Below, in pieces: positions 920-48,179 of a stretch of DNA of 64,000 nucleotides (positions are counted from its first letter, which is position 1; every line of letters begins with the position of its first letter). The notes beneath the pieces are model-generated. The model had not been told where the DNA came from, did not search any database, and was given only the letters and a program-made list of their open reading frames with translations. Source of the DNA: Arenicellales bacterium (lineage in GTDB: Bacteria; Pseudomonadota; Gammaproteobacteria; Arenicellales; JAJDZL01); assembly GCA_965214785.1 (NCBI GenBank), contig OZ243975.1:708914-772913 (forward strand). Direction: 5' to 3'. Made by a program: the position numbers and the translations under genes.

Positions 920-2355
920 TGGCAACTGTAAACCTATCAAGTCATGACCGTGAGGCTCTTGAAACCAAGCAGTCTTCTTCTCAATTAAACGTAGCGCCCA
1001 ATCAGCCATTTGCCGAACAAGCCGTCATCGGCGCCATATTAAGTGACAATGAGCAATACGATGCTGTTGCTGACAAACTCACGCCGCGAGATTTTTACAA
1101 TCAACGCCACCGGATTATTTTTGAGGCGATTAAGAGTCTGCATGATAATCGAGAAAGCATTGACTTAGTCACAATGAAAGAACAACTCGAAAGAGTTGGT
1201 GAGCTTGAAAATATCGGCGGAATTAAATACCTGGCAACGATTCAACAGGATACGCCTAGCACGCTAAATGCAGCATCATATGCCAAAATCGTGCAAGACA
1301 ATTCTATATTGCGCGGATTGCTTAGAAGCGCATATAAAATTCAGCAAATGGTGTATGACTGCAAAGACGCCAGCTCACAATCCGTATTAAGTGATGCGCA
1401 ACAGGTATTATCCGAACTTGGCGAAAATTACAGCCAAGGTGATGCCGTCATTCCCATTGCGCAGTCTGTTGCTGAGGCTTTTCAAGGAATTAATGAACGG
1501 CTGAAAAACCCCCAGCGCGGTAATATCACAGGGGTAGCCTCAGGCTTTATCGATCTCGATGGAGTGACATCAGGCTTCCAACCTTCAGACCTAATTGTTA
1601 TAGCGGGTCGACCATCTATGGGCAAGACCGCCTTGGCCATGAATGTTGCTGAACATGCAGCGATTGTTGACAACCGTACAGTTTTGATATTCAGCCTTGA
1701 GATGCAGGCAGTTCAGCTTGCCATGCGAAGCCTGTCATCAGTGAGCAGTGTGGATTCCAAAGCAATCAGGGAAGGAAACTTGGGACATGGAGCTGAAGGC
1801 ACACGCAATTGGGAAAGTCTTGCACAAGCTATGGAAGTACTCAATGGCGCACCTATATTCATTGATGTAACCCCTGGTGTTACAACATCAGAAATTATCG
1901 CCAAGTCTAGAAAACTCAAGCGGGAAAAACAGCTCGATCTGATCATCATTGACTATTTACAACTGATGCATACCAAAGACAATAACTACCAGAATAGGGC
2001 GACTGAACTTGCAAATATGACGCGTGATTTGAAGTTCCTTGCAAAAGAGCTGAATGTGCCGATCATCGCTTTGTCTCAGCTCAATCGTGAGGTTGAATCC
2101 CGCCCCAATAAGAGACCACTATTAGCAGACTTGCGAGAATCCGGTGCGATCGAACAAGATGCCGATCTGGTATTGCTTGTATATCGGGACGAATACTACA
2201 AACCCGACAGCAAAAACAAAGGACTCGCGGAAGTCAATGTTGCAAAGCACAGGAACGGGGAAACGAAAACAATCAAACTGGTTTTTGCCCATCAATACAC
2301 AAGATTCGACAATTACGCTGACGCTGCGGGTTACGAGGAGATCCCGGGAGACTAG
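919..2355 (+). CDS. dnaB: Replicative DNA helicase DnaB
   Basis: 478 aa. It has the Walker A motif GRPSMGKT, plus IIIDYLQLM and ALSQLNR motifs. The GTG start overlaps the rplI stop by 1 nt. Confidence 0.95.
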   Translation: MATVNLSSHDREALETKQSSSQLNVAPNQPFAEQAVIGAILSDNEQYDAVADKLTPRDFYNQRHRIIFEAIKSLHDNRESIDLVTMKEQLERVGELENIGGIKYLATIQQDTPSTLNAASYAKIVQDNSILRGLLRSAYKIQQMVYDCKDASSQSVLSDAQQVLSELGENYSQGDAVIPIAQSVAEAFQGINERLKNPQRGNITGVASGFIDLDGVTSGFQPSDLIVIAGRPSMGKTALAMNVAEHAAIVDNRTVLIFSLEMQAVQLAMRSLSSVSSVDSKAIREGNLGHGAEGTRNWESLAQAMEVLNGAPIFIDVTPGVTTSEIIAKSRKLKREKQLDLIIIDYLQLMHTKDNNYQNRATELANMTRDLKFLAKELNVPIIALSQLNREVESRPNKRPLLADLRESGAIEQDADLVLLVYRDEYYKPDSKNKGLAEVNVAKHRNGETKTIKLVFAHQYTRFDNYADAAGYEEIPGD

Positions 2356-2358
2356 CGA

Positions 2359-3453
2359 ATGATTGAAGAGTCTTCATCGAGACGAATATACGGATCGGTT
2401 GACTCTTTAGCAATCACCCACAATCTTGCGGTTGCCCGCAACTGCGCTCCAAATTCCAAAGTCATGGCGGTCGTCAAAACGAACGCTTACGGTCACGGTC
2501 TGGTTCCCGTTTCAAAGCTGTTGGACGATTCAATCGATGCATTAGCAGTAGCGACCGTAGATGAGGCGCTAACACTGCGACGTGCGCAAGTGCGCTCGCC
2601 GATTTGCGTACTGTCCGGATTTTATTCAGCAGATGACCTTGAACGGATCGTAGCCCGTGACATCTCGGTTGTGGTGCATTGTGTACAGCAGATTGAAGCG
2701 ATCAAGCATTCAAAAGTGTTCAATAAAGTTCCCATCTGGCTGAAAGTCAATTCAGGTATGAATAGATTGGGATTTTCGACGAATTCGATTGAATCAGTTT
2801 TTGACGAACTTGATAATATGGACAATGTCGACTTAGTTGGAATCATGTCGCATTTTGCTTGCGCTGATGATGTCAATTCGAACTATACACTCGAGCAGAC
2901 TGATCGATTCATCAACGCAACAAAGAATATCCCATTGCCGCGAAGTATTGCCAATTCTGCAGGGATTCTAAAGTGGCCAAATAGTCATCTGGATTGGGTT
3001 CGCCCCGGTATTATGCTTTACGGCGCGTCGCCGATCATAGGTCAGAATGCAAGCCAATTGGGTTTGCGTCCTGCGCTAGATCTCTACTCTACGATCATCG
3101 CCATTCACAAAATTCGAAAAGGCGAGAGAATTGGTTATGGATTGAACTGGACAGCTTCTGGCGACACCGTAGTGGGAATCGTCGCCTGTGGTTATGGTGA
3201 CGGTTATCTTCGAAGTGCGTCTTCACAAGCCCAAGTTCTCGTTAATGGAGTACCAGCTAACATCATTGGGACAATATCAATGGATACAATGGCTGTTGAC
3301 GTAACAGACCACTTGGAGGTGAAAACAGGCAGTGCCGTTAAATTAGTCGGCGCTGGAATTCCCGTTGAAGATGTTGCTGCTTGCGCAAATACGATTCCAT
3401 ATGAGTTTCTCTGTTCATTCAATCCGCGTACTGTAACGATTGATTTTGCCTGA
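2359..3453 (+). CDS. alr: Alanine racemase
   Basis: 364 aa. It has the PLP-lysine motif AVVKTNAYGHG and lies in dnaB-alr synteny as in other gammaproteobacteria. Confidence 0.9.
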   Translation: MIEESSSRRIYGSVDSLAITHNLAVARNCAPNSKVMAVVKTNAYGHGLVPVSKLLDDSIDALAVATVDEALTLRRAQVRSPICVLSGFYSADDLERIVARDISVVVHCVQQIEAIKHSKVFNKVPIWLKVNSGMNRLGFSTNSIESVFDELDNMDNVDLVGIMSHFACADDVNSNYTLEQTDRFINATKNIPLPRSIANSAGILKWPNSHLDWVRPGIMLYGASPIIGQNASQLGLRPALDLYSTIIAIHKIRKGERIGYGLNWTASGDTVVGIVACGYGDGYLRSASSQAQVLVNGVPANIIGTISMDTMAVDVTDHLEVKTGSAVKLVGAGIPVEDVAACANTIPYEFLCSFNPRTVTIDFA

Positions 3454-3464
3454 TCAATGCAACT

Positions 3465-4286
3465 TTAATCCGCTCGAAGCAATTCGTTCAAACTAGTTTT
3501 CGCTCTTGTTTTTTCGTCAACTTGCTTGACGATGACTGCGCAATAAAGGCTGTATTTTCCATCTGTCGAAGGCAGATTGCCGGAAACGACGACAGATCCT
3601 GGAGGAACCTTTCCGTAACTGATTTGACCTGTATCGCGGTTGTAGATTTTAGTGCTTTGGCCGATATACACACCCATCGATATGACTGATCCTCGACCGA
3701 TGATAACGCCCTCTACAATCTCACTGCGTGCTCCGATAAAACAGTCATCTTCAATGATCGTCGGTGACGCCTGCAGGGGTTCTAACACTCCACCTATGCC
3801 GACGCCTCCTGATAGGTGAACGTTTTTTCCTATTTGTGCACAAGACCCAACTGTAGCCCACGTGTCCACCATGGTACCGTCATCTACATAGGCACCGATA
3901 TTGACATAACTTGGCATCAGTACAACATTTTTCCCAATATAACAGCCTTCCCGTACGGTTGCCGGTGGCACAACTCTATATCCTCCATCGACAAATTGCT
4001 GTTGTGAAAAGGTTTCAAACTTTCTACCAACTTTATCGTAGTAGACTGCGCCTGCGTCGTTAATTACCCGGTTATCTCTGATTGCAAATGAAAGCAAAAT
4101 TGTCTTTTTCAACCATTGATGGACAATCCATTGGCCATCGATACTTTCGGCAACCCGCAATTGTCCGTTGTTGATGTAACCGATAACATTTTCTATCGCA
4201 TTGCGGATGTCTTCAGGACAATTGTTAGCACTTAGATTTGACTTGCTTTCAAAAGCGTCATTAATGATTGATTCGTAATGGTCCAT
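3465..4286 (-). CDS. dapD: 2,3,4,5-tetrahydropyridine-2,6-dicarboxylate N-succinyltransferase
   Basis: 273 aa with a hexapeptide-repeat C-terminal half. It lies in dapD-glnD-map synteny. Confidence 0.9.
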
Positions 4287-4551
4287 GGAACTTAAATTTT
4301 GAAATTGGAGTTTAAATATGTTTGCAACAAGTGAATTGGATGCCCCTTAGAGGGTAAAACGCCGCCATAGTGTGCCAGACTAGAATGACCCGTTCAAAAA
4401 AACAAATCGAACGAAGTATCCAGACGAAGAATATACAAAATATCTGCAAGTTTGGAGTCGACTAGAAATCAGCATCATTTCTGCGGGTAATCGGGTGTTT
4501 GATTTGGCGACAGTCTTTTCATCGATGTTACGGGTTAAACGGTGTGAGAAG

Positions 4552-7227
4552 TTACATTTGTTTAATGACTAAAGCCTTGATGATTTGGACTTCCAAGGAT
4601 CGCTGGACAGCTTCATCCTGCAAAGGCTCATCATCTCGGTCGACTATAAAAAAAACATCTTCGACTCTAGCGCCGGAGGTCGTAATTTTTGCAGAAAGCA
4701 AGTGTATTTTGTGGTCTAGCAGCGCTCGCACCACGTGATACAAAAGCCCGGGACGGTCCTGCGCGGTGACTTCCATAATCGTATAGTCATTGTTCGGAGA
4801 TCGGGTAAAGCGAACCTGCGTTGGAAATGCAATATGGCGTGCGACACGATCCTGAGCAACCAATCGTGGTGAGTGGTCAACTATCCGGTTGACCATAGCA
4901 CTTCTGACTTCTGATTCAAACTTACGTAAATTAGTATCACTGATACCTTCATCTGGTTGACGAACCAAAACTACAAACGTAAAAACTGTAAGTCCAGTTT
5001 TCAATGGATGCGTTCTGGCTTCGACCACGTTCAGATAACATCGGTCAATTGCACCTGCGATGATGGCAAACAGTTCTTCCGACTTGGCAGCGATCACAAA
5101 AATCTGATAAACATCAATAGAAGGGTGTACACGGAAATTCACGCAGGGCAGGGCAATCGCATTGGTTTTCGCACAATTTTCAACATGCCAGGCGATTGTG
5201 TTTGCATCATAACTGAGAAAATACTCATCATCACACAATTCCCACAACCGGTTGGCTACGTCTTTGAGCTGAGAATTTCTGCCGATTACCGCCAGTGTAT
5301 CGATCTTAATTTCCTCTATACGAGGTTCGATTTCGCGATGTGGTAGAGTATCGGTCAAAAGCATATGGGAAGTCGCAAGATACAGGTGTTCGAGCATTTT
5401 GCCTTTCCAGTCGTTCCACACCGTCGGGCCGGTGCCTTGCATGTCCGCAACAGTCAGCAAAAGCAAGTGATCGAGATGCTCTTGATTGCCAACTTTCACA
5501 GCAAACCTTGCGATTACTCCAGAGTCATTAAGATCTTCACGTTGACTTGTAAAACTCATTGCCAGATGATTTCGAACTAACCATGCTATGAGATGAGAGT
5601 CGTAGTCATCCATTCCCAGTTTCTTACAAAAGGCAAAAGTCTCATGTTCGCCCAGTTCACTGTGATCTCCTCCCTGGCCTTTGGCAATGTCATGAAACAG
5701 TCCTGCAAGAAACAGTCTTTCAATCTTTATGATTCGCGACATGGCTTCTGCAGCGAGTGGGAAAGTCTTCGCGCTGTCAGACAAAGTCAGTGAATGAAGA
5801 TTGCGTACGACATTCAATAAATGTGCGTCCACCGTGTACACATGAAAAAGATCATACTGCAATTGTCCTGTAATGCGTTTGAATTGGGGGACAAGTCTTC
5901 CAAGCAGTCCGGTATCGTCCATAAGTCCAAGGGTTTCAGGCAGACGATCGGCAGTAGCGAAAATACTGCGCAGCATGGACTGAACAGTTGGCTTTCGACG
6001 AATTTTGCTGTTAATCAGCATTCGGTTTGATCGCATAAGACGAAGAGTTTTTGCACGAACCCCACGGATACGTCCGTTATTTTGAAATACACAGCAAACT
6101 TCAAGCAACACTTCCGGCTGGGTGCTGACTTTGTCAGGCTCTATCAAGTCCAAGAAGCCATCGACCATTTGAAATTTGTGATCAATGGTTTTTATTTTTG
6201 AACGTTGACGAGTCAAAAATGATTCTTCATAATGCTGAAGTAATATCTGATTAATATGACGCAACTCTTTGACTGTGCTGAAGTATGTTTTCATCAACTT
6301 TTCTACAGCTTTGTTTGCGTTGTCGTCAGTAAAACCAAAATTCTTGGCAAGTTTGAGTTGATGAGAGAAAAGCAGCCTGTCGTCTCGACGTCCAAGTTCA
6401 AAGTGCAATTCGTTTCGCAGTCGCCAAAGGTAGTTCCGCCCTTCGATTAGTGTTTGATACTCGTCATTGTGTAAAAATCCTCTGTCAACGAGTTCACGCA
6501 GGTTGCGACTGCCAAAGTGGCGTTTTGTCACCCACGAAACGGTATGAATGTCACGTAATCCACCGGGGCCTTCCTTAATATTGGGTTCCAGGTTATAAGC
6601 GGTGTCTGCGAATTTGCGATGACGATTTCTTTGTTCTTGTAATTTGGCCTTAAAAAATTTACGAGCTGGCCAAATTTTCGATTGTTGAAGGCTGGTTTCA
6701 AGTTCGCGATAAAGCGATTGATGTCCTGCACAGTAACGCGATTCAAGCAAGTTGGTCATGACCGTGATATCTGCGGCAGACTGACTGATGCAGTCCGACA
6801 GTGTTCTTACACTGTGTCCCACTTCAAAACCGATGTCCCAGAAAAACCGCACCATTTGTTCAATAGAGCGGTTTACATTGTCATTGCATCCGGTACCCAG
6901 CACCGTCATGATATCGATATCAGAATGCGGATTGAGTTCTTCACGACCATATCCGCCAACTGCAACCAGACAGCAAGGGTTGTTGATTTCATGGGAAGCC
7001 ATAAACAGTTCCCAGACATCCTTGAGCACGCGATCGACTGTTTCGACCCGATACGCAACAAGCTGGGAGGCTGAACAGCCATTTTTGTGCAATGTTTTGA
7101 TTGCTTCAGCATCGTGTTCGACACGGTGCCGAAAGCTTTCAAGACAAACGTCTTTCGATGCAGAGTTGGCTTTCGGTAAAGCCAATTTTACGGAACCTGA
7201 TAAAAATCGGGATTGATAAGGAAACAA
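4552..7227 (-). CDS. glnD: Bifunctional [protein-PII] uridylyltransferase/uridylyl-removing enzyme
   Basis: 891 aa. It has a nucleotidyltransferase motif (GGYGREELNPHSDIDI), an HD domain (LFHDIAKG) and two C-terminal ACT-like regions. Confidence 0.9.
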   Translation of the reverse strand: MFPYQSRFLSGSVKLALPKANSASKDVCLESFRHRVEHDAEAIKTLHKNGCSASQLVAYRVETVDRVLKDVWELFMASHEINNPCCLVAVGGYGREELNPHSDIDIMTVLGTGCNDNVNRSIEQMVRFFWDIGFEVGHSVRTLSDCISQSAADITVMTNLLESRYCAGHQSLYRELETSLQQSKIWPARKFFKAKLQEQRNRHRKFADTAYNLEPNIKEGPGGLRDIHTVSWVTKRHFGSRNLRELVDRGFLHNDEYQTLIEGRNYLWRLRNELHFELGRRDDRLLFSHQLKLAKNFGFTDDNANKAVEKLMKTYFSTVKELRHINQILLQHYEESFLTRQRSKIKTIDHKFQMVDGFLDLIEPDKVSTQPEVLLEVCCVFQNNGRIRGVRAKTLRLMRSNRMLINSKIRRKPTVQSMLRSIFATADRLPETLGLMDDTGLLGRLVPQFKRITGQLQYDLFHVYTVDAHLLNVVRNLHSLTLSDSAKTFPLAAEAMSRIIKIERLFLAGLFHDIAKGQGGDHSELGEHETFAFCKKLGMDDYDSHLIAWLVRNHLAMSFTSQREDLNDSGVIARFAVKVGNQEHLDHLLLLTVADMQGTGPTVWNDWKGKMLEHLYLATSHMLLTDTLPHREIEPRIEEIKIDTLAVIGRNSQLKDVANRLWELCDDEYFLSYDANTIAWHVENCAKTNAIALPCVNFRVHPSIDVYQIFVIAAKSEELFAIIAGAIDRCYLNVVEARTHPLKTGLTVFTFVVLVRQPDEGISDTNLRKFESEVRSAMVNRIVDHSPRLVAQDRVARHIAFPTQVRFTRSPNNDYTIMEVTAQDRPGLLYHVVRALLDHKIHLLSAKITTSGARVEDVFFIVDRDDEPLQDEAVQRSLEVQIIKALVIKQM

Positions 7228-7265
7228 ACCATCAGATCAAACTATATAAATTCGGCAAATAGTGC

Positions 7266-8042
7266 TTAGACTTCGCCAGTCATAGGGGAAAGAGTAAGAA
7301 TTTCATATCCATTTTGCGTTACTGCAATGGTGTGTTCCCACTGAGCTGAAAGGCTGCCGTCGTTAGTCACCACTGTCCAGCCATCGGCCTGTAGCCTCGT
7401 TTCTTTTTTACCTGCGTTGATCATGGGCTCAACCGTAAACACCATACCAGGCATGATTTTCAAACCCGAATTTGGTTCTCCGTAATGCACAACTTGAGGT
7501 TCTTCGTGGAAATTCCGACCAATTCCGTGTCCGCAATATTCACGCACTATTGAATAGCCGTGGCGCTCAGCATATCGTTGTATTGCATAGCCGATGTCAC
7601 CAAGTGTAGCCCCTGGTGCGATTTGCTCGATGCCTTTGACCATGCTCTCATGACAGATTCGACAGATTCTTGCAGCTTTGATGGAGGGTTTGCCAACCAA
7701 AAACATTCGAGATGTATCTCCGTGGAATTCGTCTTTAATCACCGTTATGTCAATGTTGATGATGTCTCCGTTTTTTAAGACTTTGTCATTCGGAATTCCA
7801 TGACAGACGACATTATTGACTGAAGTGCAGATTGATTTTGGAAATCCGCGATAGTTCAAAGGCGCTGGTATGCACTGCAAATCCTTAGTAATGTATTCGT
7901 GACAAATTCGATTTAGTTCGTCAGTAGAAACACCTTCGACAACGTGCGGTTCAATCATGTCGAGTACAGAAGCGGCAAGGCGGCCAGCGACACGCATTTT
8001 TTCGATTTCTGCTTGAGTTTTTAAAGTAAAAGGGGCTGTCAC
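7266..8042 (-). CDS. map: Type I methionine aminopeptidase
   Basis: 258 aa. Motifs include VCHGIP, DIINIDITV, GHGIG and EPM. GTG start. Confidence 0.95.
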   Translation of the reverse strand: MTAPFTLKTQAEIEKMRVAGRLAASVLDMIEPHVVEGVSTDELNRICHEYITKDLQCIPAPLNYRGFPKSICTSVNNVVCHGIPNDKVLKNGDIINIDITVIKDEFHGDTSRMFLVGKPSIKAARICRICHESMVKGIEQIAPGATLGDIGYAIQRYAERHGYSIVREYCGHGIGRNFHEEPQVVHYGEPNSGLKIMPGMVFTVEPMINAGKKETRLQADGWTVVTNDGSLSAQWEHTIAVTQNGYEILTLSPMTGEV

Positions 8043-8387
8043 GGTTTACAACGATTCAAAATTCTTTCTTTTCAACTTCTATTGTCGGATGACACTTGCA
8101 CTCATAGTCCGTCAATTGTCGCATATCAGTGCTACGCTTGCCACGGATACAGGGGATGATCGTGCAGGGGGAGTACGATAACACAAGATAATGTTCAATT
8201 GACGAAATACTGCGGAACAAATGGGCTCATGAACTGTATTAGCCGAACATTATTCAAATAGTCAATGCGTTAATATTCAGTGAACATACGAACTGTAAGA
8301 TTACGTAAAGTGAATTGTTACAAGAGGCAGTGAATACTTTGTGCTGACTTCACCATGGCCATTCGCAGTGAGGCAGCGCACTGAGCA

Positions 8388-9878
8388 TCAATCAACGGTA
8401 TATTGAGCAACCATATCGACTGCCTTTTTCCATCTCCTCAATAACCTTTTACGTTCATTGCAATCCATCTGCGGTTCAAAAACGCGGTCAAGCTGCCAGT
8501 TATTTTTGATTGAATTCAAAGATGAAAACAACCCGATGTGCAGTCCCGCCAGAAAAGCAGCGCCTAACGCGGTAGTTTCGGTATTGGTTGGCCGATCGAC
8601 CGGGAGATTGATTACATTACAAAGAAACTTGCAGAACCAGTCGTTGTTCGCCATTGCGCCATCGATTCGCAGACGTGCGACGGTACTGCCGTCGCTACGA
8701 ATCGCTTCAAGCAAGTCTGCTGTTTGGTAAGCAACTGATTCCAAGGCCGCGCGGGTGATTTGTGCTTTTCCGGTATCCCTCGTTATTCCGAAAACTGCAC
8801 CACGCGCGTTTGGCAACCAGTGCGGTGCACCTAGTCCGGTTAGCGCAGGCACCAGATAAACCCCACAGTTGTCATTGAGTGAAGCAGCGATATCCGCAGA
8901 TTGCGCCGCGTCTTCGAAAAAATTCAATTCGTCCCTTAACCACTGCATTGCTGCTCCTGCCACAAAAATTGATCCTTCCATCGCATAACAAGTCTGTCCG
9001 TTGAGACGGTAACCAACCGTAGATAGCATCTTGTGTTGAGACTTGATCAATTCACGGTCCGTATTGATTACAACGAAACATCCGGTGCCATAGGTGCTTT
9101 TGACCATGCCGGGCTCAAAGCATGCTTGTCCAATCAAAGCTGCTTGCTGATCACCTGCAACACCGCAAATCGGTAGAGTCTGGCCCAATATCAAAGCGTC
9201 GCTAACACCGAAGTCGTCTGCACTGTTTTTCACTTGAGGCAAACACTGTTCAGGAATGGAAAACAAACGCAGCAGATCTGGATCCCAACGCTGGTTGCGG
9301 ATGTCAAATAACATCGTTCTTGAGGCATTGGTGGCATCGGTCACGTGGTTTGCTCTACCAGTCAAATGCCAAATCAAAAAGGTGTCGACCGTTCCGAACA
9401 TCAGTTCGGCGCGCTCGGCACGTTGTCGCACTCCTTCGACATTGTCCAGAATCCATTTAAACTTGGTAGCTGAAAAATAAGGGTCTGGGAACAGTCCTGT
9501 CTTATCTTGAATTAACGGAATCAATCCATCGTGTTGTAGGGAAGCACAGTAGGATGCTGTTCGTCGATCTTGCCATACGATTGCGTTATAAACGGATTCG
9601 CCTGTATTGCGATCCCACACTACAGCGGTTTCGCGCTGATTTGTAATTCCTATTGCTTTGACAGCACCGGGCAAACTTTCCGCGTATTGCAATACTGCAC
9701 GAGCCACCTCGAGTGTCGTTCCCAAAATATCATTCGGGTCGTGTTCAACCCAGCCATCGTTTGGAAAATGTTGAGCAAACTCTTTTTGCTCAGTGTGGCG
9801 AACCTGTCCGTCCTGATCAATCAGGAGTGCCCGAGAACTGGTTGTACCCTGATCTATGCTTAGAATATAGGATTGCAT
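8388..9878 (-). CDS. glpK: Glycerol kinase
   Basis: 496 aa. The N-terminus YILSIDQGTTSSRALLID and the GITNQRET motif are typical of FGGY-family GlpK. Confidence 0.95.
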   Translation of the reverse strand: MQSYILSIDQGTTSSRALLIDQDGQVRHTEQKEFAQHFPNDGWVEHDPNDILGTTLEVARAVLQYAESLPGAVKAIGITNQRETAVVWDRNTGESVYNAIVWQDRRTASYCASLQHDGLIPLIQDKTGLFPDPYFSATKFKWILDNVEGVRQRAERAELMFGTVDTFLIWHLTGRANHVTDATNASRTMLFDIRNQRWDPDLLRLFSIPEQCLPQVKNSADDFGVSDALILGQTLPICGVAGDQQAALIGQACFEPGMVKSTYGTGCFVVINTDRELIKSQHKMLSTVGYRLNGQTCYAMEGSIFVAGAAMQWLRDELNFFEDAAQSADIAASLNDNCGVYLVPALTGLGAPHWLPNARGAVFGITRDTGKAQITRAALESVAYQTADLLEAIRSDGSTVARLRIDGAMANNDWFCKFLCNVINLPVDRPTNTETTALGAAFLAGLHIGLFSSLNSIKNNWQLDRVFEPQMDCNERKRLLRRWKKAVDMVAQYTVD

Positions 9879-10092
9879 TGAAATTTTCGTTTGTCAAAGC
9901 GTTGTTTCTGAGTCTGTATCAATGATATTCGTTTATATCTTGAATTCCGAAGAGTTAAATCGCATAGGATGACACGATTCTATTTCATCATCGTCAGAGT
10001 GTCAGGAAGTGTATTGGACGCGGAATATTTCAACAGTACAAGCGTCAAGGTAATACAATAAGCGCCTGAGTTTTGATGGACTAATACTGACA

Positions 10093-12834
10093 GTGGTAGG
10101 AACAAGACTTAAACAAAAGTGCTTGAAAATGCAATTCACACACATAAATTTCAGTAACCGAACCGAGTTTTATTCATCGCGGCATCCGCGTTATAAATCC
10201 AAACCGTTCTACCCCCCCCCCGCTGGATCTAGTCGCCGCTTAGCACCGCCTGTCGTAAGCGCAAGTACTGCGACAGATCACTTTCGTCTTCATCCTCAAA
10301 CTTGCGGCATCAAGACCGCATTTTTGTGCTCAGCCTTATCAGCAGCACTTGCAGCATCGCTGTCAAGCGCTGATACCACACAGCAAACGATTGAACAGGC
10401 CATTGACTATCCGGAAGGTGCTGTAGCCAGAATCACTTCTGTCGCACCCAAAGATGCGCTGTGGACGCTTGAGGGTGAAGACGCAAAAAGATTATTGATC
10501 GAAGACGGTGTACTTCGATTTTCTGAAGACGGCCTTCGAGTCGCCCGACCTGATTTTGAAATCCCCCGTGATGCAGACGGTGACAATGTCTACCGCGTTC
10601 GCGTAACGCGCATTATCGATGATGCAGATAAAAAGCGAAGCTATGATTTCGTAATCAGGGTCACCGACCGCGATGAACCAGGTCGCATCAAGACATCCAC
10701 CGTTCACCCAGTCAACGGTGAAACTGTTCAGGTTCATCTTACAGACCCTGATGACATCGAAGGAGAGATCCGATGGCGCTGGCAGCGCTCGGCGGAACCT
10801 GACCAATGGATTTCCATTGATGCCGTCAATTCTTCCTCCTACACCCCAAACGCAGGCGATACAGGTCACTTCATTCGCGTCATCGCTGAGTACCACGACC
10901 GTCTAGGCGGTCCCCGTACGGTAAAGGCTCTTTTACCTGAAACTGTAATTGGCCCAAAGCTACTATCTTTAGATGCCAAAACCGACCATGGCGGAAAAAC
11001 ACTTCATCCGCTGTTTGACCCTGTCATCACTCACTACGGCATCGAATGTGACGAGCGCGATGTGTTGAGTGTGAACTTCACCTTACCACAAGATATCAAA
11101 GCATCAGTCAACGCCATACAGCCTCGCCCGGGGCGCAAGACAGGAGCAGCGGCAGCTGTAGAAGAAACCAGTGATACAAAGATTGTCTTATCTCAAGCAG
11201 ACGGTGCGAGTACGACCTACACCATACACTGTCTGCCACAGCAGCTTGCCAAGATACGAACCAAACCGGATCCGAACAATCCGCTTGACGTACTGCTTGG
11301 GGTAACAGCAGGGCCCTTTGCAGCAGTGATTGACGAAAACGGAGTCTCGCGCGCGCATATCAAGGCAAGCCGCGGCAAATCAGGTTTCTTTTTTCGACCT
11401 TTCGGCTCAGGGCACAACATGCGCTTTGCGCATGTTGAAACATCAGCAGAAGAAAAACAGCACTGGCGAGTGCTTGATCGAAACTTCAATACGGTGCGCA
11501 CCGTTGCCACCGCTTCGCCTTTGACCACGACCGGGCGTCACGACTTTCGGCTGCTTGCAGATGGTTCTTCTCTGCTGATGACTTATGAACCTCAAGTTCG
11601 GGACTTCAGTTATCTTTCTTTTCCTGACCCAGACGGTGAACCGTGGGGAAGCGCGGTAGAAACCGAAGATTCAGCTATTCAATGGCTCGGTCCTGACGGC
11701 AAAGTGCGGTGGACCTGGAATTCCTGGGGCCGAATACCACTTGAAGACTGTTCACAGCACCGTTTTCCGCAAGACTGGGCGCATGTCAATTCAATTGAAT
11801 GGACAGATCAAGGCGTACTGGCATCTTTTCGCGGCTGCTCTTCAATTTTGATGATTGACCCTAAAGCTCCATCAGGAGACGAGATCGTCTGGCGTATTGG
11901 CAGAACCAATTTGCAGGCAGATGAGTGGAAAGAACGCGGTCTTAGTCCGCCTCCGCTTGCGATTGTCGGTGATCCGGAAGGTGAGTTTTGCGGTCAGCAC
12001 GCGGCAATGCTGCTGGCGCCACCTGCAGGATTGGAGCTTTCGCGCTTACTTTTGTTTGATAACGGTGTTGCTTGTGTAACCAACCCACATACAGGTGAGT
12101 CACTTGGCCGCGAATCTGACCGTTACAGCAGAGCTTTAGAATACGCAATTGATGTTGCAAACGAAGAAGCGATCTTTGTACGCGACCATGCTCTTGGCAA
12201 TAGCCGAGACCGCCTTGGCTTTGCAGGCGGTCATGTAGAACCTTTATCTGACGGCAAGTGGCTTGTGAGTTGGGGCGGAGGTGGAGCAAACAACACCGGT
12301 GAAAACCTTGGCCTTGAGATTACTGACTTGGTGACAGCAGTTGATCCAGACAAAGGACAAGAAACCTTTTCCATCCCGGTTGGCGATGATGACAAAGCGA
12401 CTGCCGGATTTCGGGTACTGCCTGTTGCATTGGATCTGTTGATGCGCCCGCAAGCGCAATTGCATGCATTTTTTCCAGACCCGCTGCCACCTTCTCACGA
12501 TGGTGCAGGTAAGACATTTTCGATTCTTGTGTCTTTTTCTCGGCCGATCTCAGACTTTGGTGTAGATACCCCGTCCATTGAGATTAGCGGCGGTGAACTT
12601 ACCGAAGTACAAGCTTTCACTTCATTCGGGCGACCTGCAAACAGTTATGAGATTTTCATCAAACCTGCTGCAAGCGATCCGATGTGCCTGTCGTTTCGGA
12701 CAAAAATCAGCTGCACTGAAAGAGAAAGCATATGCAGTGCTGACGGGACTGAGCTCACCGAAGCACCAGAACCTTTTTTGATTCCAGGCAGTGACTTATC
12801 CAACGGTCAGTCGCACACAAACAAGTGCACATGA
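10093..12834 (+). CDS. Secreted multidomain protein with cadherin-like beta-sandwich modules and an arylsulfotransferase (ASST)-like beta-propeller. The start codon is uncertain.
   Basis: A signal-peptide-like segment KTAFLCSALSAALAASLSSA|DT occurs only at residues 74-93. A cadherin-like segment reads LSLDAKTDHGGKTLHPLFDPVITHYGIEC...TTYTIHC. ASST-like motifs are GRHDFRLLADG and DWAHVNSIEWTDQGVLASFRGCSSILMIDP...IVWRIGRTN. No ATG, GTG or TTG lies between the C10 tract and the signal peptide. Confidence 0.7.
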   Translation: MVGTRLKQKCLKMQFTHINFSNRTEFYSSRHPRYKSKPFYPPPAGSSRRLAPPVVSASTATDHFRLHPQTCGIKTAFLCSALSAALAASLSSADTTQQTIEQAIDYPEGAVARITSVAPKDALWTLEGEDAKRLLIEDGVLRFSEDGLRVARPDFEIPRDADGDNVYRVRVTRIIDDADKKRSYDFVIRVTDRDEPGRIKTSTVHPVNGETVQVHLTDPDDIEGEIRWRWQRSAEPDQWISIDAVNSSSYTPNAGDTGHFIRVIAEYHDRLGGPRTVKALLPETVIGPKLLSLDAKTDHGGKTLHPLFDPVITHYGIECDERDVLSVNFTLPQDIKASVNAIQPRPGRKTGAAAAVEETSDTKIVLSQADGASTTYTIHCLPQQLAKIRTKPDPNNPLDVLLGVTAGPFAAVIDENGVSRAHIKASRGKSGFFFRPFGSGHNMRFAHVETSAEEKQHWRVLDRNFNTVRTVATASPLTTTGRHDFRLLADGSSLLMTYEPQVRDFSYLSFPDPDGEPWGSAVETEDSAIQWLGPDGKVRWTWNSWGRIPLEDCSQHRFPQDWAHVNSIEWTDQGVLASFRGCSSILMIDPKAPSGDEIVWRIGRTNLQADEWKERGLSPPPLAIVGDPEGEFCGQHAAMLLAPPAGLELSRLLLFDNGVACVTNPHTGESLGRESDRYSRALEYAIDVANEEAIFVRDHALGNSRDRLGFAGGHVEPLSDGKWLVSWGGGGANNTGENLGLEITDLVTAVDPDKGQETFSIPVGDDDKATAGFRVLPVALDLLMRPQAQLHAFFPDPLPPSHDGAGKTFSILVSFSRPISDFGVDTPSIEISGGELTEVQAFTSFGRPANSYEIFIKPAASDPMCLSFRTKISCTERESICSADGTELTEAPEPFLIPGSDLSNGQSHTNKCT
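10212..10221 (+). repeat. Homopolymeric C10 tract inside the 5' end of the 10093-12834 ORF
   Basis: Read directly: tac ccc ccc ccc gct (Y40-P41-P42-P43). The ten consecutive C residues lie 28 codons after the ATG at 10129 and about 90 nt before the signal-peptide coding region. Confidence 0.95.
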
Positions 12835-12901
12835 ACAAATCAAAAGATCCAAAACCCTTGCGCGTTTGTCGCAATCGGTCAGATAACAAAGGAGTTTACC
12901 T

Positions 12902-15900
12902 ATGAACGGTTCAAGCAAAGATCGAACTGACAATCCGGTTATTGAAATTAGGCCTAAGTTTTGTTTTAAACGATGTAGTCGGTTGAGTCATTACAGGGCT
13001 GGCGCTGCATCGCAATATGCTGGACGCTTATTTCGAAATGTGATGACCGGATTGCTGGCGCTGCTGATCGCGGCTACGTGGATGTCGGGGGCGCAGGCGC
13101 AATCAACGGCCAATCCCGCTGGCTTGTGCGAAGGTCAGATAACGGAAGTCACTTTTTCAGATGTTTCAGCAAGCAGCACCACCACCCCAACTTGGGTCGA
13201 TATAACCAATACTTCTTTTTCTTCCGGTCATGTGTGGTTTGTGAATACCGACGGCACGAATGCGGGTCAGTCCAATTTTCCGGTGAGCGTGGTAAACGAC
13301 AGTTTTACTGTACGAATTCAGCTTGCAGATAATCTCGTGACGAGTTCTGGAGCGTCAACCGTATCTGTTAGTGAATTGAGTTCGAGCTATTGGGACGGCG
13401 TAAGATTTGATATCTGGGATTCTACGGATTCGAGATGCGCGGCCAGTACCACCGACGGCGTCACCCTTTCCGTATCCGCCCTAACTTTGACCGAGCTTGG
13501 TAGTTCCAGCGATGCCGAGAAGACCTACACCGTAGTGCTTGACACCGATCCGGGCGCCGATGTGACCTTCACGGCGACGGTGCCGGCGGCAAACAGCTCC
13601 GAGGTCGAGATCAAGACCGGCAGCGGCGCTTTCGGCAGCAGCGCCACGCTCACTTTCACCCATGGCAATACCGGCAACTGGAGTTCGGCGCAGACGGTGA
13701 CGGTCAGGGCGCTGAACGATGCCAATGCAACCAACACCACCTCCTTCAACCTCACTCACAGCCTGACCGTGGCCAGCGGTCCCTACGCAAGCATCACACC
13801 GGACCCGGTTGCGGTGTCGGTGACCGACGCCGGCCACGGGGTCACCGTGTCCAAGGCCAGCGTTTCGGCGACGGTGGGTGGCGCTACCGGGACCTACACG
13901 ATCCAGCTCAAAAGCCAGCCTGGCGGCTCGGTGGTCATCACGCCGACCTCGAGCGCCACGGCGAGGGCCACGGTGTCGGGCGCCCTGACTTTTACGAACT
14001 CGAACTGGTCCACGCCGCAGACGGTGACCGTGACTGGCGTCGATGCTGGCTCGGCCACGATCAGCCACATGGTGACGACCGGCACCACGGACTACCCGAC
14101 CAGCACGACGATCGCCTCGGTGACGGCGACGGTCACAACGTCAACGTCGTCAGTTCCGGTGATTTCGATGTCGCTTCCGAGCGGCGAGAGCGAGATGTAC
14201 ACGGATGACGACGAGCTGATCCGCCCGGAAAGCGAGGGCGGTACCGGCGTGCTGTTCACCGTGAGTGCCGACCGGCCGCTGCCGAGCACGCTGACGGTGT
14301 GCGTGCGGGTGACCGAGAGCGGCGGCGACCGGGTGACCTCGGGCAATGAGGGCATCAAGACGGTGAGCCTGCCCAGCGAGACCCTCACCACCAGTTCGAA
14401 CACCCACAGTCTCACCTGGACAAACACGAACACGGACGACCAGGACAGCAGCGTGACCGTCGAGGTAGTGGCGCCCAGCACAGTGGGCTGCTCGGTGGCC
14501 AACGACGCCTACACGGTCTCGTCCAGCGACGCCTCGGACAAGCTACTCATTCAGGATGACGAGGCGACCACGGTCTCGCTCACAAGTACAGACATAACCA
14601 TGACCGAGGGCGATGCCTCGGACACTGCTACGCTCACGGTTTCGCTGTCCCGCCAGCTCTATGCCGGCGAGGTCATCGTCGTACCGTTGACGTTGGCGTC
14701 GAGCACCGGAGCGCGGCTGCCGGGGAGCACGAACAGCGGCACTGCCAACCACGATTTTACGGTCGCGGCGGCGGCCGCGTCCGGACATAGCGGTTTGACA
14801 ATCGCGAACGCATTGACGGCCACGCCGAGCCTGACCTTCACCGGCCACGACAGCAATACGGTGCAGACGGCGACGGTGACGCTGACCCCGGTGGCGAACC
14901 GCGATGACGGAAACATGGCCCGCGAGTCGATCACCGTGACACTAGCGTCCGACAGCATACTCGGCGCCACCGGGACGGGCACGACGGTGAGCGGCGGCGT
15001 TCAGCGGCATGCGTCGAACAACGCGGCGACCCTGACCTTAGAGGACGACGAGGCAGTTCCGGCCGGCACGCCGGGCATCACCCTGTCGCCGCTCGGCCCG
15101 CTGCGCCTGCTGGAGACCGGCACGACGAGCTACACGGTAGTGCTCGACGCGGCGCCGACGCATGATGTGACGGTCACTGTTACCAAGAGCCAGGCGGGTT
15201 TAACGGGAACGGGAACGGGACGCACACCCGACCAAAATGCTGCGGACCCCAGCTCGAATCAACTCACCTTCACGACTACGAACTGGAGCCAGCCGCAGAC
15301 GGTGACCGTGACAGGGGCGGACGAGTCCGGCAGGCACCGGAACCGCGCGATGCGTTTAATCCATTCGGCAGGATCGACCGACTCCCGCTACACTGGCTTC
15401 AACACCAACATCCGGGTCGATGTGGACGACGCGCCCGAGGTTGAGGCGTTTTGGTACATCAAGGGCGGCGGCGCGCTCAATTCGCGGATCCGGCGACCGC
15501 ATACGATAACGTCAAGCGGGCTGACGGCGTGGCAGAACGCGGCACCCGGCGACAGAATAAACTACGCCGTACGCCTGTCGAACCGCCCGGCGCCCGGCGG
15601 CACGGTGACAGTGACAGCGACGGTGCCTTCCGACAAGCGCAACCTCGTCGGCCTGTCGCTGACCGAAGGCGGCACGGCGCAAGACACGGTGACGGTTGAG
15701 TTCAAGGACCGCAGTCCCGGCGCAGGCACGGGCTGCAGCAACTGGTTCGGCCATCAAGCGCATCAATACTTCGACAGCCACGGCAACACGCGGACAGTGT
15801 CGGGCCGCCAGCCAGGCGAGAGCTACGACGGCACGGCGGACACGCCCTGGGAGTGCTGGCGCATGATTTATGTGGTGCGCAAGGACGCCTCGCGCGACAT

Positions 15901-18900
15901 CGATGACACTTGCGTCGACATCACCCACACCGCCACAGGCGGCGGCGTGCGCAAGGTCACGGTCGATACGATCCGCGCCCATGTAAGGAACCCGTCGCGC
16001 AACAGACGGGGGTCAAGAGGTTACAATAGCCAATGCTCCAACCTGACCGGCAACACGCTTTCCCCGCAAGGATCGCCCGCGAAGGCCGCACCCACACCCA
16101 CCGAGGCGGTGGCCAATGTTCAGGTGACGGCGGTGGACGACACCAGTGCCAGCGTCACCTGGGATGCGGTAGAGCACGCCACCTCCTATGACGTGTCGTG
16201 GAGTGCTGAAAGCAGCGACGCTCTGAACGCTTCGGCCGGTGACTTGCCCGGCATAACGGCCACCACGACCACCATCGACCACGGCGCCTCGGTACCGATG
16301 ACACTTACGGTTACAGTAATACCGGAATACATCGATGAAAACGGTGACACCGTACAATTGGATGATCTTGGTACAACAGCAACATTGGAAGTCGGCCCTG
16401 GAAGCGATGCCCTTCGCGCTGAAGCACAAAGCCCGGATACACAATCGACGCAATCGGCTGTAACACCCGCGCAGCGTTTGGAGGCAGCTAAGCTGTGCGT
16501 GTCAGACACGCTGATGGAAAAGACAAAGCGTTATTACGAACTTCACCGAAACAAGGCACCGGGTTATGGTGCGAACTGGTTTGCTATTTTGACTGCGTTT
16601 GGCGAACGTACGCAAGTCGACTGGACAGCTGACAGTCGTAGCATAGAGCCGATGAGCGCCGCTTCTTCGCGCGAGCGCGAGTCGAAGTGGAGCGGCTGGA
16701 AGCCTTTTACCGAAGCATTGGAATGTGTAGAGGGAGAACTTGCAAAGGTACAAGCTGCCGCACAAGCCGAAGCACAAGCGGCAGAACAAGCGGCAGAACA
16801 AGCCGATGAAGTCGCACCACTAGTGCTACCGGATGATCTGACAGTGACATTAGAATCCGCTGATTCAGCATCCGGCGTAACAGAAGGCACTGAAGTGTCT
16901 TTTACGCTCAAGGCAGACAGTGCACCGACAAAAGAGCTTGAAGTGACGGTAACGGTCACTCAGACAGGCAGCGTTGCAGATACTTCAGCCACAGGCGAGC
17001 GCAAAGTAACGATTCCGGTCGGTCAGACGCAAGCGGCTTTTAAAGTAGCAACATTAGCCGATGACACCGATGAGGTACAAGGTTCTCTAACGGCAACCGT
17101 ATCAGACGGTACAGGCTATAAGACAGATGATCAAAGTGCAAGTGTAACGGTAGCTGTAAATGATGATGATGCAACATCCATTACGCTCAGTGCCAGTGCA
17201 GACGATCTGACAGAGATTGTTTCTGAAGGATCAAGCAAAAAGACACTGACAGTCACATTAGGGCGTACACTGATCGAAGGTGAAAGCATCGAAGTGCCGC
17301 TTGTCTTTACCGGCACCGCATCGCTTGGCAGCGACTATACGCTTGAAGCGCCAAAGACAGTACCAACCGGGGTGAGCTATGCCAACCTTGGAGGCAGTGA
17401 TCCTGCCAAGGCACCGACAGTGACTTTTGCAGGTTCTACAGGTGGTGTATCTTCACTAACAGCAACACTGACGCTGACCACAGTTGCCGACAGCAAAGCT
17501 GAAGATGACAAAGAGACCGTTACAGTCAAATTGGGCACACCGGCTACAACAGGATTAGGCGGCGGTGTTTCGACTTCTGGAAACGTACAGTTCTCCATCT
17601 TGGAGCCTGTACCTGAGATTTCCATTACAGCAAAGACAGAAACGGTTACAGAAGGTACAGATGCGGTATTCACTGTAAAAGCTAGCCGATCTTCAGGATC
17701 TGACCTTACAGTTAATCTTACAGTCTCAGAATCGGAGGGCAGCGACTTCGTTGCCGCAGATAAAGAAGGTACAGCTACAGTTACCATCACCAAAGGGGAG
17801 ACGGAAGCTGACTTTTCAGTACCGACTGTAAACGATACGGTCAATGAACCCGATGGGTCGGTAACCGTAACGGTTGTCGAAGACGGTGAAAAAGGACAGT
17901 ATTACTCTCAAGCCTCATCACCTGGAGATTCAGCTTCTATAAAAATCACCGACAACGATGCAGTTGCGACGGGACCGGAATTTTCTGTAGCTGATGAAAC
18001 CGCCAATGAGAATGTGGGTTTAATGTACTTTACGGTTCGCTTGGATCGTTCATTGAGTCAAAAAGTACAAGTGACATTCAACGTACGCGAATCGAGTCCT
18101 GTCTCAGCCCGTATGGGACAAGATTACTTTTGGTGGTGGGAAGACGGTCTTGCGCTTACCTTTTACCCGGGTCAGACCCAAAAGAAGATGTGGGTATATG
18201 TCTATAACGACAATCACGACGAAGACCCTGAGACCTTTGAGGTGGTGTTATCGAATCCGACAGGGGGTACAGCCATCGGTGATGGTGTTGCGGTTGGTAC
18301 CATTGTGAACTCTGATCCGATGCCAGCTGCGTGGTTGTCGAGGTTTGGGCGCACCGCTGCGCAGCAAGCCTTAGACGGCATTGCCGCTCGCATTGAATCT
18401 TCAAGAACTTCAGGTATTGAAGGCTCTATAGCCGGACAGGCGCTTGTGTTTGATCCCCAATCCAAATCACTTGTCACAAGCGGTACAGCACAAAACAGTA
18501 CTGCAAACAGTCTTACTGAAACATCATCGCTTGCAAGCTTTGATGCAGATCATGCATTTGGAGATAAAAAAGACGCATCAGGCAATACCGATCCCTTCGG
18601 TTACCAGTCGTATTCTATGACTGAGCGAGAAGCGCTTTTAGCAAGCTCTTTCACGGCAACCGAAGATAAAGATTCATCTGGAGGCTCTTTGGCCTTTTGG
18701 GGCCAGGCTTCACAATCGAACTTCGATGGAACAGAAGGGACGTTTTCCTTAGACGGAGAGGCGACTACTTTGATGAGCGGTACCGATTATGCACGAGGCG
18801 AGTGGCTTTTAGGCATCGCATTGATGCAATCCAAAGGCAAAGGCGGTTATCGCGATACCGATACGGTAAAGCAAGCGGATCTTCCGCAATGTAAAGAAGA

Positions 18901-47783: not shown

Positions 47784-47918
47784 TGCGAGTGAATTGTTGA
47801 CTTTCGTATAAAGTCGACTTGAAATGTACAGGCTTTTACCAAAAGGCAGCTTCTATTGAAACGCTACTTATCTTGGAATTGTGTCTTTTGGAATATCGAA
47901 GTGTCCAAGGTTTTAGAA

Positions 47919-48179
47919 TCATTGTCCGGAAGAGCCGTTTATCTTTTTTCGGAGTGAATCAACCTGTTCGCGATTGAGTCTCGTTAACTCGACAATCTCA
48001 TCGGATTTCATACCCCTTAGCAGCAATTTTGCCGCGACCTCTTCATGACCTTTTTCAATGCCTTGTTCAATGCCTTCTTTCCGACCTTCTTCCCGAAGTT
48101 CATCTATAGCGGACATCACCATCTGTTTTTCCTCTGACGTTCTGGTTTCAAAACTCGATTTCTCAAAACGGTCGGCCAA
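47919..48179 (-). CDS. Stand-alone copy of the Rpn-like C-terminal tail domain (RpnS-like small protein), short-repeat variant
   Basis: 86-aa ORF with a TTG start. The sequence is MADRFEKSSFETRTSEEKQMVMSAIDELREEGRKEGIEQGIEKGHEEVAAKLLLRGMKSDEIVELTRLNREQVDSLRKKINGSSGQ. Confidence 0.5.
   Translation of the reverse strand: MADRFEKSSFETRTSEEKQMVMSAIDELREEGRKEGIEQGIEKGHEEVAAKLLLRGMKSDEIVELTRLNREQVDSLRKKINGSSGQ

Follow-up and report, generated by a model that had tools for sequence, protein, structure and literature searches.

A giant autotransporter-like protein of an Arenicellales bacterium whose outer passenger appears to have been exchanged between bacterial lineages

The giant open reading frame (ORF) at positions 12902..19885 (+) of a 64,000-nucleotide (nt) stretch of Arenicellales bacterium contig OZ243975.1 (assembly GCA_965214785.1, positions 708,914 to 772,913; the whole stretch is referred to here as the window) probably encodes a type V-like, calcium-dependent surface adhesin in which the cassettes of the exposed passenger are exchanged by recombination among symbiont lineages living together, a reading to which we assign a probability of about 0.65. 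The ORF is complete, with 2327 codons and a stop, an ATG start and no internal stop, and is the longest of the window, as had been stated in an earlier annotation made from the letters and their translations (the sequence-only reading); the next longest is that of DnaE (1151 amino acids, aa). Because the encoded protein has homologues at E = 0, a chance ORF is ruled out. The sequence-only reading described the protein as an autotransporter with a passenger of beta-sandwich modules; it missed the sharp compositional mosaic within the gene, and also that proteins of a large family in the metagenome-assembled genomes (MAGs) of symbionts are normally built in this way.

The GC content at third codon positions (GC3) changes abruptly along the gene. 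Specifically, GC3 is 0.48 over codons 1-200, 0.77-0.89 over codons ~204-1133 (mean ~0.84) and 0.35-0.56 over codons 1134-2327; eight other genes of the window lie at 0.41-0.46, and the GC content of the window is ~0.45. Maximum likelihood places the change points at codons 204 and 1133; they delimit a high-GC3 block of ~2.8 kb (residues ~204-1133, 13511..16300, +), with each switch complete within 15-30 codons and the reading frame preserved on either side. On the right, the junction is at the C-terminal end of a fibronectin type III (FN3) domain, in a stretch that is near-invariant across homologues, and the apparently imported block makes up the outer half of the passenger, with the extreme tip excluded.

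A second copy of the gene is found on an independent contig (L003; ENA ERZ25070917 ctg113047, 34x) that has a backbone GC of 0.45-0.50 and flanking genes different from those of the window, with NAD-glutamate dehydrogenase downstream. Over residues 419-2327, this copy shares 96% nt identity with the window gene, and its GC3 changes in the same steps; identity between the two copies is patchy, ranging from 91 to 100% per 300 nt. It spans 2261-10728 of its locus and has ~500 extra N-terminal residues relative to the window protein; a 1-nt deletion near nt 2634 of the window ORF leaves ORFs of 1375 aa and 1443 aa, and the split copy is either a pseudogene or the product of a sequencing error. The existence of this copy bears on the proposal that the mosaic is an assembly chimera, in which conserved repeats caused reads from a high-GC organism to be built into a low-GC contig. 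Although a multi-copy family with conserved stretches could mislead an assembler in this way, two in-frame switches 2.8 kb apart would be required, and similar mosaics occur at loci L001 and L002 and in chromosome-level assemblies. Since the independent contig repeats the same steps in another context, 96% identical over both junctions, we do not take the mosaic to be an artefact of assembly and give the chimera hardly any weight.

The high-GC block is shared with other lineages, being 79-89% nt identical over 1-3.3 kb to loci L001, L002, L004, L010, L011 and L020. Identity amounts to 82.8% over residues 407-1149 on the chromosome of an alphaproteobacterial MAG (L004, OZ244041), 86.2% over residues 788-1149 in a member of the Thalassobaculaceae (L010), 84.9% over residues 787-1149 in the alphaproteobacterial OZ243917 (L011) and 89.1% over residues 837-1153 on a chromosome of Candidatus (Ca.) Binatia (L020, OZ243916), all four loci being on chromosomes or large contigs; these four matches, at 83-89% identity, extend over 1-2.2 kb. 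In the best 300-nt windows, identity reaches 96-97% at each of these four loci and also at L001 and L002, third positions included, and the segment most recently shared across phyla is that of residues 885-1028, which is 96-97% nt identical to L004, L010, L011 and L020. The stalk and barrel of the protein (residues 1325-2327) are just 64-67% nt identical to the same four loci. At the protein level, residues 788-1133 share 87% identity with L004 and residues 1134-1305 share 41%; for the stalk and the barrel, the values are 67% and 64%.

Patches of the reciprocal kind are also present. At L001, where the family gene occupies 10001-14191 in a genome with a backbone GC of 0.62-0.66, codons ~100-200 (10301-10600) have a GC3 of 0.44-0.54 and the rest of the gene one of 0.8-0.98; compared with window residues 101-200, this low-GC patch is 90% identical in aa, 92% in nt and 88% at third positions. 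A mosaic of the same kind as that of the window gene is seen in two paralogues at L002, which combine a high-GC3 passenger (0.77-0.95) with a host-like stalk and barrel (0.55-0.65, with a backbone GC3 of ~0.62). Recent recombination between lineages fits these observations, because GC-biased conversion cannot yield a low-GC patch and purifying selection cannot keep third positions; judged from these comparisons of sequence, the exchange is one that runs both ways. The same evidence bears on the alternative that the high GC3 arose in place, through GC-biased conversion among paralogous repeats or through codon-usage selection, with no transfer at all. It is true that the family is GC-richer than the host backbone at nearly all loci, barrel included (0.75 versus 0.60 at L047; 0.73 versus 0.57 at L069), and that the patchy identity between the window gene and its second copy is what gene conversion predicts. 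However, the boundaries are sharp, the nearly identical patches are shared with chromosomes of other classes and phyla down to their third positions, and the low-GC patch of L001 is of a kind that such conversion cannot make; we consider an origin in place very improbable.

The recombining passenger is carried by a protein whose two ends suggest export across both membranes of the cell envelope. A Shine-Dalgarno sequence (AAGGAG, 12889..12894, +) lies 7 nt 5′ of the ATG at 12902, and inspection of the sequence upstream of Met48 gave no comparable site. The first 47 residues (12902..13042, +) form a leader that constitutes an extended signal-peptide region without a Pfam match; it is kept in homologue P0121 (MNGPNKDQTGNPVIE..SQYAGRSFRNVMTG) and for this reason is probably translated, and long pre-signal extensions are present in further family members too. 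The model of the extended signal peptide region (ESPR, PF13018) is unmatched by residues 1-433 in a Pfam search at E ≤ 10. A Sec-type signal peptide follows at residues 48-67 (13043..13102, +), with the sequence MTGLLALLIAATWMSGAQA|QS and a likely cleavage site AQA|QS; signal and site were judged by eye, without SignalP, and these residues are the sole hydrophobic run of at least 14 residues in the protein. The leader and signal peptide that the sequence-only reading had placed at residues 1-47 and 48-67 are thus borne out by the Shine-Dalgarno sequence, the conservation in P0121 and the hydrophobic run. At the opposite end, the protein terminates in V-R-F-E-A-I-A-R-W, an aromatic end on a last strand of alternating hydrophobic residues that, by eye, has the form of the beta-signal of outer-membrane proteins.

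The terminal domain itself is predicted to be an outer-membrane beta-barrel of ~410 aa (residues 1916-2327, 18647..19882, +), ending in ..FEAIARW. An AlphaFold 2 (AF2) model built from a 45-sequence alignment has a predicted local distance difference test score (pLDDT) of 79, mostly 84-98 within the barrel, and a predicted template-modelling score of 0.72; it shows ~18 long strands between residues 1929 and 2326, a helix-containing loop flanked by Cys residues that follows strand 3, and an amphipathic last strand with the terminal Trp. Upstream of the barrel lies a junction helix, PAAWLSRFGRTAAQQALDGIAARIES (residues 1809-1832, 18326..18397, +), with a pLDDT of 83-94 and conserved in alignment A1. 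Between this helix and a predicted short helix at residues 1907-1912 the model places a low-confidence linker of ~50 aa, whose variable part (residues 1854-1904, 18461..18613, +) has a pLDDT below 50 and is poorly conserved in A1. Hence, of the ~520 C-terminal residues that had been assigned to an autotransporter beta-domain, the existence of a C-terminal barrel ending in Trp stands as a prediction, but the barrel covers about the last 410 residues, with a helix and a variable linker before it.

When the barrel model was compared with known structures by Foldseek, the matches were to outer-membrane barrels only, including TonB-dependent transporters with template-modelling (TM) scores of 0.3-0.4 and the beta-domain of BrkA with an E value of 1e-5, a target-normalised TM score of 0.50-0.55 and a root-mean-square deviation (rmsd) of 8-9 Å. 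Homologues at 50-65% identity provide a connection to autotransporter models: 4 of the 45 pass PF03797 (28-36 bits against a cut-off of 26), over model positions 1-207 of 255 only, and 27 of the 45 match TIGR01414 at E ≤ 0.01, chiefly over positions ~160-227 of 432. A few homologues also bear the NCBI name [quoted passage not shown]. From the model and these matches we conclude that the C-terminal domain is in all likelihood an outer-membrane barrel and a distant relative of the autotransporter beta-domain, the link being transitive via the homologues. Relative to that beta-domain, the predicted barrel would have ~170 extra residues and six to eight extra strands.

It is worth asking, then, whether the protein is simply a canonical type Va autotransporter, with a 12-stranded PF03797 barrel and a pore-spanning helix, in which only the beta-sandwich passenger is unusual. 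The resemblance to type Va proteins such as BrkA, Ag43 and EspP (PF03797/TIGR01414) extends to the whole order of parts, that is, a Sec signal with an extension, a passenger, a helix and a C-terminal barrel with a terminal aromatic residue; in addition, homology can be recognized over the first barrel strands of some family members, some homologues pass the type Va models or carry the corresponding NCBI name, and BrkA is among the top folds. In contrast, the passenger here consists of beta-sandwich modules and theirs of a beta-helix, the leader here is not an ESPR, and a barrel of ~410 aa with ~18 predicted strands differs from one of 12 strands and ~255 aa. The query falls below every model, those homologues that do match cover only the parts of the models given above, and the BrkA superposition, at a TM score of about 0.5, and a non-significant profile alignment do not favor membership. 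We therefore regard the canonical type Va assignment as unlikely, and prefer the type V-like adhesin with a divergent barrel: judged from the models, the protein probably works like a type V autotransporter, although it does not match the sequence models of that class and probably departs from its 12-strand plan.

Several observations weigh against this preferred reading. The models PF03797 and TIGR01414 are unmatched by the whole protein, by its last 532 aa and by its last 432 aa, even at E ≤ 10; the sequence-only reading had itself named the lack of such a match as something that would refute its autotransporter proposal, and this part of the claim is not fully supported. Searches of the Protein Data Bank with the barrel, by sequence and by profile, returned no autotransporter, and hhalign against a barrel profile of Ag43, YfaL, YpjA and YcgV gave a local E value of 0.03 and a probability of 1.6%, which is not significant; in global mode, hhalign against these four Escherichia coli autotransporter barrels gave meaningless output. 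The number of strands and the closure of the barrel are read from a DSSP string and from weak Foldseek TM scores (0.25-0.55). On the side of the exchange, the best match to the whole block is just 79-89% nt identical, with no one candidate donor standing out, and the independent support for the junctions comes from a single contig, L003. Finally, surface exposure, calcium dependence and the ligand are predictions, and the status of the window organism as a sponge symbiont is read from its relatives.

A different role for the barrel can also be envisioned, in which it is a mere anchor or a porin-like channel and the beta-sandwich region is periplasmic or is exported by a machine of the type I or type II secretion system (T1SS or T2SS) kind. 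In support of this idea, homologues of residues ~400-1282 occur as barrel-less, stand-alone proteins with signal peptides, showing that the modules do not need the barrel, and no type V translocator with 18 strands has been established. Nonetheless, the protein has an N-terminal Sec signal and neither RTX repeats nor T1SS features, Calx-beta, FN3 and Ig domains are typical parts of extracellular adhesins, and among the top 150 representatives of the family the barrel nearly always forms the very end of a giant repeat protein, which is the logic of type V secretion; the anchor model is accordingly an improbable one in our estimation. An RTX adhesin of the LapA type, secreted by a T1SS, was considered as a separate candidate and rejected: a motif scan of the 2327-aa protein found no GGxGxD, the signal is of the Sec type, and the C-terminus is a predicted beta-barrel.

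The passenger of the type V-like protein begins with a tip domain (residues 68-195, 13103..13486, +) of low GC3 (0.48) and no assigned fold, for which neither Pfam nor the internal-repeat comparison gave a match. It is followed by two Ig-like modules (residues 196-300 and 310-412, 13487..14137, +), with a third such module at residues 725-845 (15074..15436, +). All three carry the LTFT..NW..QTVTV motif, at residues 250, 362 and 788, and match one another by phmmer, as expected from the three modules recognized in the sequence-only reading; for the first two, Pfam gives just weak fn3_6/DUF7363 matches. Two Calx-beta-like modules, ending in LIQDDE and LTLEDDE, lie between them (residues 415-560 and 560-715, 14144..15046, +). 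Their earlier assignment is upheld by internal similarity, in that residues 415-715 resemble residues 1570-1690 and 1420-1570 with E values of 1e-7 to 6e-7 in a phmmer self-comparison, but not by a direct Pfam Calx-beta match, which is absent from residues 415-715. These internal repeats are invisible to BLASTP self-comparison and were detected by phmmer with --max.

Farther along, residues 885-1028 (15554..15985, +) form a beta-sandwich domain without a family (AF2 model m78ec6c82d0db, pLDDT 77-94), whose Foldseek matches are tandem Ig/FN3 folds. The FN3 domain at residues ~1066-1174 (16097..16423, +) remains below the Pfam cut-off, with PF00041 scoring 20.8 bits against 25 at residues 1069-1123 (E 4e-4); the module that had been proposed at residues ~1066-1140 does not pass that scan but is supported by its predicted fold, since the AF2 domain at residues 1074-1174 superposes on the monobody 6bx5_C with a TM score of 0.73, an rmsd of 3.4 Å and 21% identity, and on the FN domain of PTPRZ with a TM score of 0.61 (Foldseek). 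Next, AF2 predicts a helical bundle and a long Ala/Gln/Glu helix (residues 1189-1303, 16466..16810, +); the Ala/Gln/Glu linker previously placed at ~1281-1305 (here residues 1284-1301) lies inside a predicted helix spanning residues 1264-1303. A 12-nt tandem repeat, ACAAGCGGCAGA, present in 4.5 copies with an 85% match (16750-16803), codes for the QAAEQAAEQA part of this hinge helix and could vary in length. A search for an enzymatic or lectin domain in residues 845-1300 ended in rejection of both, as AF2 and Foldseek give just beta-sandwiches and the helical bundle.

The helical domain marks a point at which family architectures part. Many homologues of residues ~400-1282 are separate, barrel-less proteins secreted under a signal peptide of their own, and stop exactly at the helical domain, in ..RWxPVLEALxCxE, and others run on into a Calx-beta stalk and barrel; the architecture in the window is therefore one of several module combinations. 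In the window protein, the stalk consists of four Calx-beta modules (residues 1310-1805, 16829..18316, +) defined by PF03160 and by internal repeats, with a host-like GC3 of 0.35-0.50. That four more such modules lie here, as the sequence-only reading proposed, is confirmed by PF03160, which has a cut-off of 27 bits and scores 40.1 bits with the whole protein and 50.2 bits, in three stretches, with residues 1301-1800; the best stretch is at residues 1694-1791. A profile of homologues (alignment A2) matches the calcium-binding domains of the sodium/calcium exchanger NCX1 (E 2e-6), and a weak Pfam match to a LapA domain is found at residues 1573-1684. Taken with the results of Pfam, phmmer and AF2/Foldseek for the other modules, the earlier description of a beta-sandwich passenger of Calx-beta, Ig and FN3 type holds.

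These features suggest how the protein might function. The Sec signal and its 47-aa extension would direct it to the periplasm, the C-terminal barrel would insert in the outer membrane, and the ~1,800-aa passenger would be displayed outside the cell in a type V-like manner, in the order tip, Ig-like, Calx-beta-like, beta-sandwich and FN3 modules, helical hinge and four Calx-beta stalk modules. The Calx-beta modules, which have DDD/DDE ends, suggest stiffening by calcium and possibly calcium-driven folding outside the cell; extracellular calcium would probably drive both the folding and the rigidification of these modules. A role as a surface-displayed adhesin, put forward by the sequence-only reading, is a reasonable interpretation of the domain types, the Sec signal and the terminal barrel. 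The likely ligand would be a host matrix, and for a sponge symbiont the Calx-beta-rich Aggregation Factor, the sponge's glue for cell recognition, or sulfated glycans may be candidates. In evolutionary terms, the tip, stalk and barrel would be long resident in a gammaproteobacterium of ~45% GC, and codons ~204-1133 would have been recently swapped, in frame, for a homologous sequence from a high-GC donor. From the equivalent and reciprocal patches in other lineages, we infer that co-resident symbionts of different classes and phyla may draw on one pool of passenger cassettes, which recombine into the translocator genes that each lineage already has.

The family to which the protein belongs is large. 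With a profile of the barrel, the number of matching 50%-identity cluster representatives is 18,072 at E ≤ 1e-3 and falls to 4,975 at E ≤ 1e-30, and among the top 150 of these nearly all are ~1,000-7,300 aa long, with few shorter. Searches of GTDB species genomes gave 343 loci confirmed by tblastn, of which the best 80 are all in MAGs. Family members occur in Alphaproteobacteria, Paracoccaceae, Thalassobaculaceae, Gammaproteobacteria, Ca. Binatia and Vicinamibacteria, as well as in Spirochaetia, Nitrospirales, Gemmatimonadota and Ca. Poriferihabitaceae, and often in several copies within one genome. Open frames ending in the barrel range from 880 to >3,800 aa, so that a length of 2,327 aa is ordinary for the family; for the same reason, lengths from a word-indexed protein search, in which the L003 product (96% identical) was missed and many gene calls, at 550-920 aa, were truncated at the N-terminus, are not to be trusted. 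Regarding the surroundings of individual family genes, a phage-type integrase gene (17788-19014) lies 3.6 kb downstream of the one at L001, and a PhdYeFM/PIN toxin-antitoxin pair (7202-7824) lies between the two paralogues at L002.

A connection to sponges emerges from several of these relatives, and many of the MAGs with named family members appear to be of sponge origin. Ca. Poriferihabitaceae is named in a sponge genome note (PMC12859430), and the bin names COS, RHO, CAR and SB resemble, in style only, those of a sponge MAG survey (PMC8163846). Sponge symbionts are enriched in Calx-beta domains (PMC9531527, PMC11706023), lateral transfer of adhesion genes among them has been described (PMC8163846), and the sponge Aggregation Factor is composed of up to 14 Calx-beta domains (PMC5400394). 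The marine origin presumed in the sequence-only reading likewise gains support from the relatives, which also point to a host-associated organism.

Several of the related giant genes also carry perfect octanucleotide arrays, (ATCGCCGG)n, of 8-44 units at their 5′ end. Such arrays are found in Alphaproteobacteria, Thalassobaculaceae, Ca. Binatia, Ca. Poriferihabitaceae and Paracoccaceae (L004 4963-5028, L005 5400-5508, L007 6200-6277, L009 6024-6157, L010 5320-5433, L011 5137-5373, L026 5429-5567, L039 4880-5002, L044 5330-5502, L055 4598-4720, L078 3277-3626 and, on the minus strand, L020 ~20930-21009). The array starts at the -10 box of a near-consensus promoter, in which TTGACA is invariant in 11 of 11 aligned loci; GATC and CCGG are contained in every unit, and the copy number varies among paralogues of one genome. 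The array-bearing leader of L011 has no Rfam match, and the window has no match to the array with two mismatches allowed. In the genes that have it, the array is a candidate for a transcript leader of variable length or for a contingency switch.

Within its own genome, the giant gene is part of a ~12-kb block between map and rpsB, set in the conserved gammaproteobacterial dapD-glnD-map / rpsB-tsf-pyrH...bamA...dnaE region. Besides the giant ORF, the block holds an FGGY kinase gene, a gene for a 913-aa arylsulfotransferase-like protein and a 216-aa orphan. In the 913-aa secreted protein (10093-12834, +), residues 549-773 form an arylsulfotransferase (ASST) beta-propeller and, by eye, cadherin-type repeats seem to lie near the N-terminus; its GC of ~0.52 is above the window background. 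Its gene stops 67 nt before the giant ORF. A sequence scan of this gap found no promoter-like site, and promoter and terminator scans around the giant gene performed no better than on shuffled sequence; co-transcription of the two genes is possible, and the 913-aa protein may be functionally tied to the giant protein, for example via sulfated host glycans. Directly downstream, the 216-aa ORF (20016-20666, +; GC 0.40-0.43) has no Pfam match and no exact copy in the assembly collection.

The DnaE of the window is 99% identical to protein P0241 on ENA contig ERZ25070917:ctg118799, and its next relatives are at 77% and then at 58% or less, which indicates that the organism belongs to an isolated lineage of Gammaproteobacteria and that a strain of its species is present in ERZ25070917. 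Likewise, locus L088, whose start falls 6 kb past the giant gene, matches the window over 21.8 kb with 99.1% nt identity. Elsewhere in the window, ribosomal protein S2 (21111-22292, +) is 393 aa long, its S2 domain extending to residue ~224 and giving way to an acidic, Ser/Asp/Glu-rich low-complexity tail of ~170 aa. A Transposase_31/Rpn-like gene (48313-49371, -) has a 99%-identical counterpart in L088 that contains PF04754; its ~85-aa C-terminal tail (..TRTPEEKQMVMSAIDEL..KLLLRGMKSDEIVELTRLNREQVDSLRKKIN..) is repeated by small ORFs at 47919-48179 and 47487-47783 (-), and one tail copy within 47487-49371 (-) holds 12-nt repeats coding for GIEQ.

It is informative to set the giant protein beside other adhesins. 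The inverse autotransporters of type Ve (intimin and invasin) likewise join a tandem Ig-like passenger to an outer-membrane barrel and act in adhesion, but their barrel is N-terminal and their passenger C-terminal, the reverse of the order seen here; Pfam matches to IAT_beta and BIg are absent from the query. The opa, pil and tbp genes of Neisseria and the outer-membrane protein genes of Helicobacter are mosaic surface genes that result from recombination within naturally transformable species. The giant gene is similar in that its patchwork segments are concentrated in the exposed part and its relatives carry a simple-sequence repeat at the 5′ end. It differs in that the partners come from different classes and phyla, ~20-25 points apart in GC, and in that the octamer array of the relatives, absent from the window, lies after the promoter -10 box and not in a coding leader. 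LapA, SiiE, other RTX adhesins and BapP share with the giant protein long tandem arrays of Calx-beta, cadherin-like or BIg extenders that are thought to be rigidified by calcium, and an N-terminal Sec signal is likewise present in BapP of Pseudoalteromonas tunicata (PMC12153261). In contrast to the giant protein, which is without RTX, LapA, SiiE and BapP use a T1SS or a route that is not established, and none has a C-terminal beta-barrel.

Closest in habitat are the adhesion-domain proteins of sponge symbionts (PMC8163846, PMC9531527, PMC11706023), which also contain Calx-beta, FN3 and cadherin-like domains. Domain enrichment and whole-gene transfer in these organisms are already known from published work; those papers give domain counts or whole-gene transfer, whereas the case described here concerns exchange of a sub-genic cassette, fused in frame with the stalk and barrel of the resident gene. 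Cross-phylum exchange of in-frame cassettes, reciprocal patches and the barrel family were not found in full-text searches on autotransporters, nor, by term search, in PMC8163846, and no description of the barrel was met in the three papers just cited.

One can imagine a broader scenario, which we offer as tentative and rather doubtful in its entirety. Gammaproteobacteria, Alphaproteobacteria, Binatia, Nitrospirales, Spirochaetia and Acidobacteriota within the same host might share cassettes; the ~18-strand barrel might be an enlarged, hitherto undescribed relative of the autotransporter barrel and represent a new subclass of type V; the Calx-beta arrays might engage or imitate the Aggregation Factor; and in the high-GC members the conserved promoter and the hypervariable (ATCGCCGG)n leader behind it might tune or switch expression.

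The difference between a host of ~45% GC and donors of ~65-70% GC allows imported and resident parts of the gene to be read from codon composition, which thereby acts as a natural tracer, and the mosaic provides unusually clean evidence of the exchange of sub-genic adhesin cassettes between co-resident symbionts of different phyla. In addition, thousands of 50%-identity clusters contain a barrel that is mostly missed by current autotransporter models. This barrel may exceed any known type V translocator and, if that is true, would bear on how very long beta-sandwich passengers are exported. Finally, the Calx-beta make-up of the Aggregation Factor leads to a specific hypothesis, namely that proteins of this kind may serve in the attachment of symbionts to the host or in their escape from being eaten.

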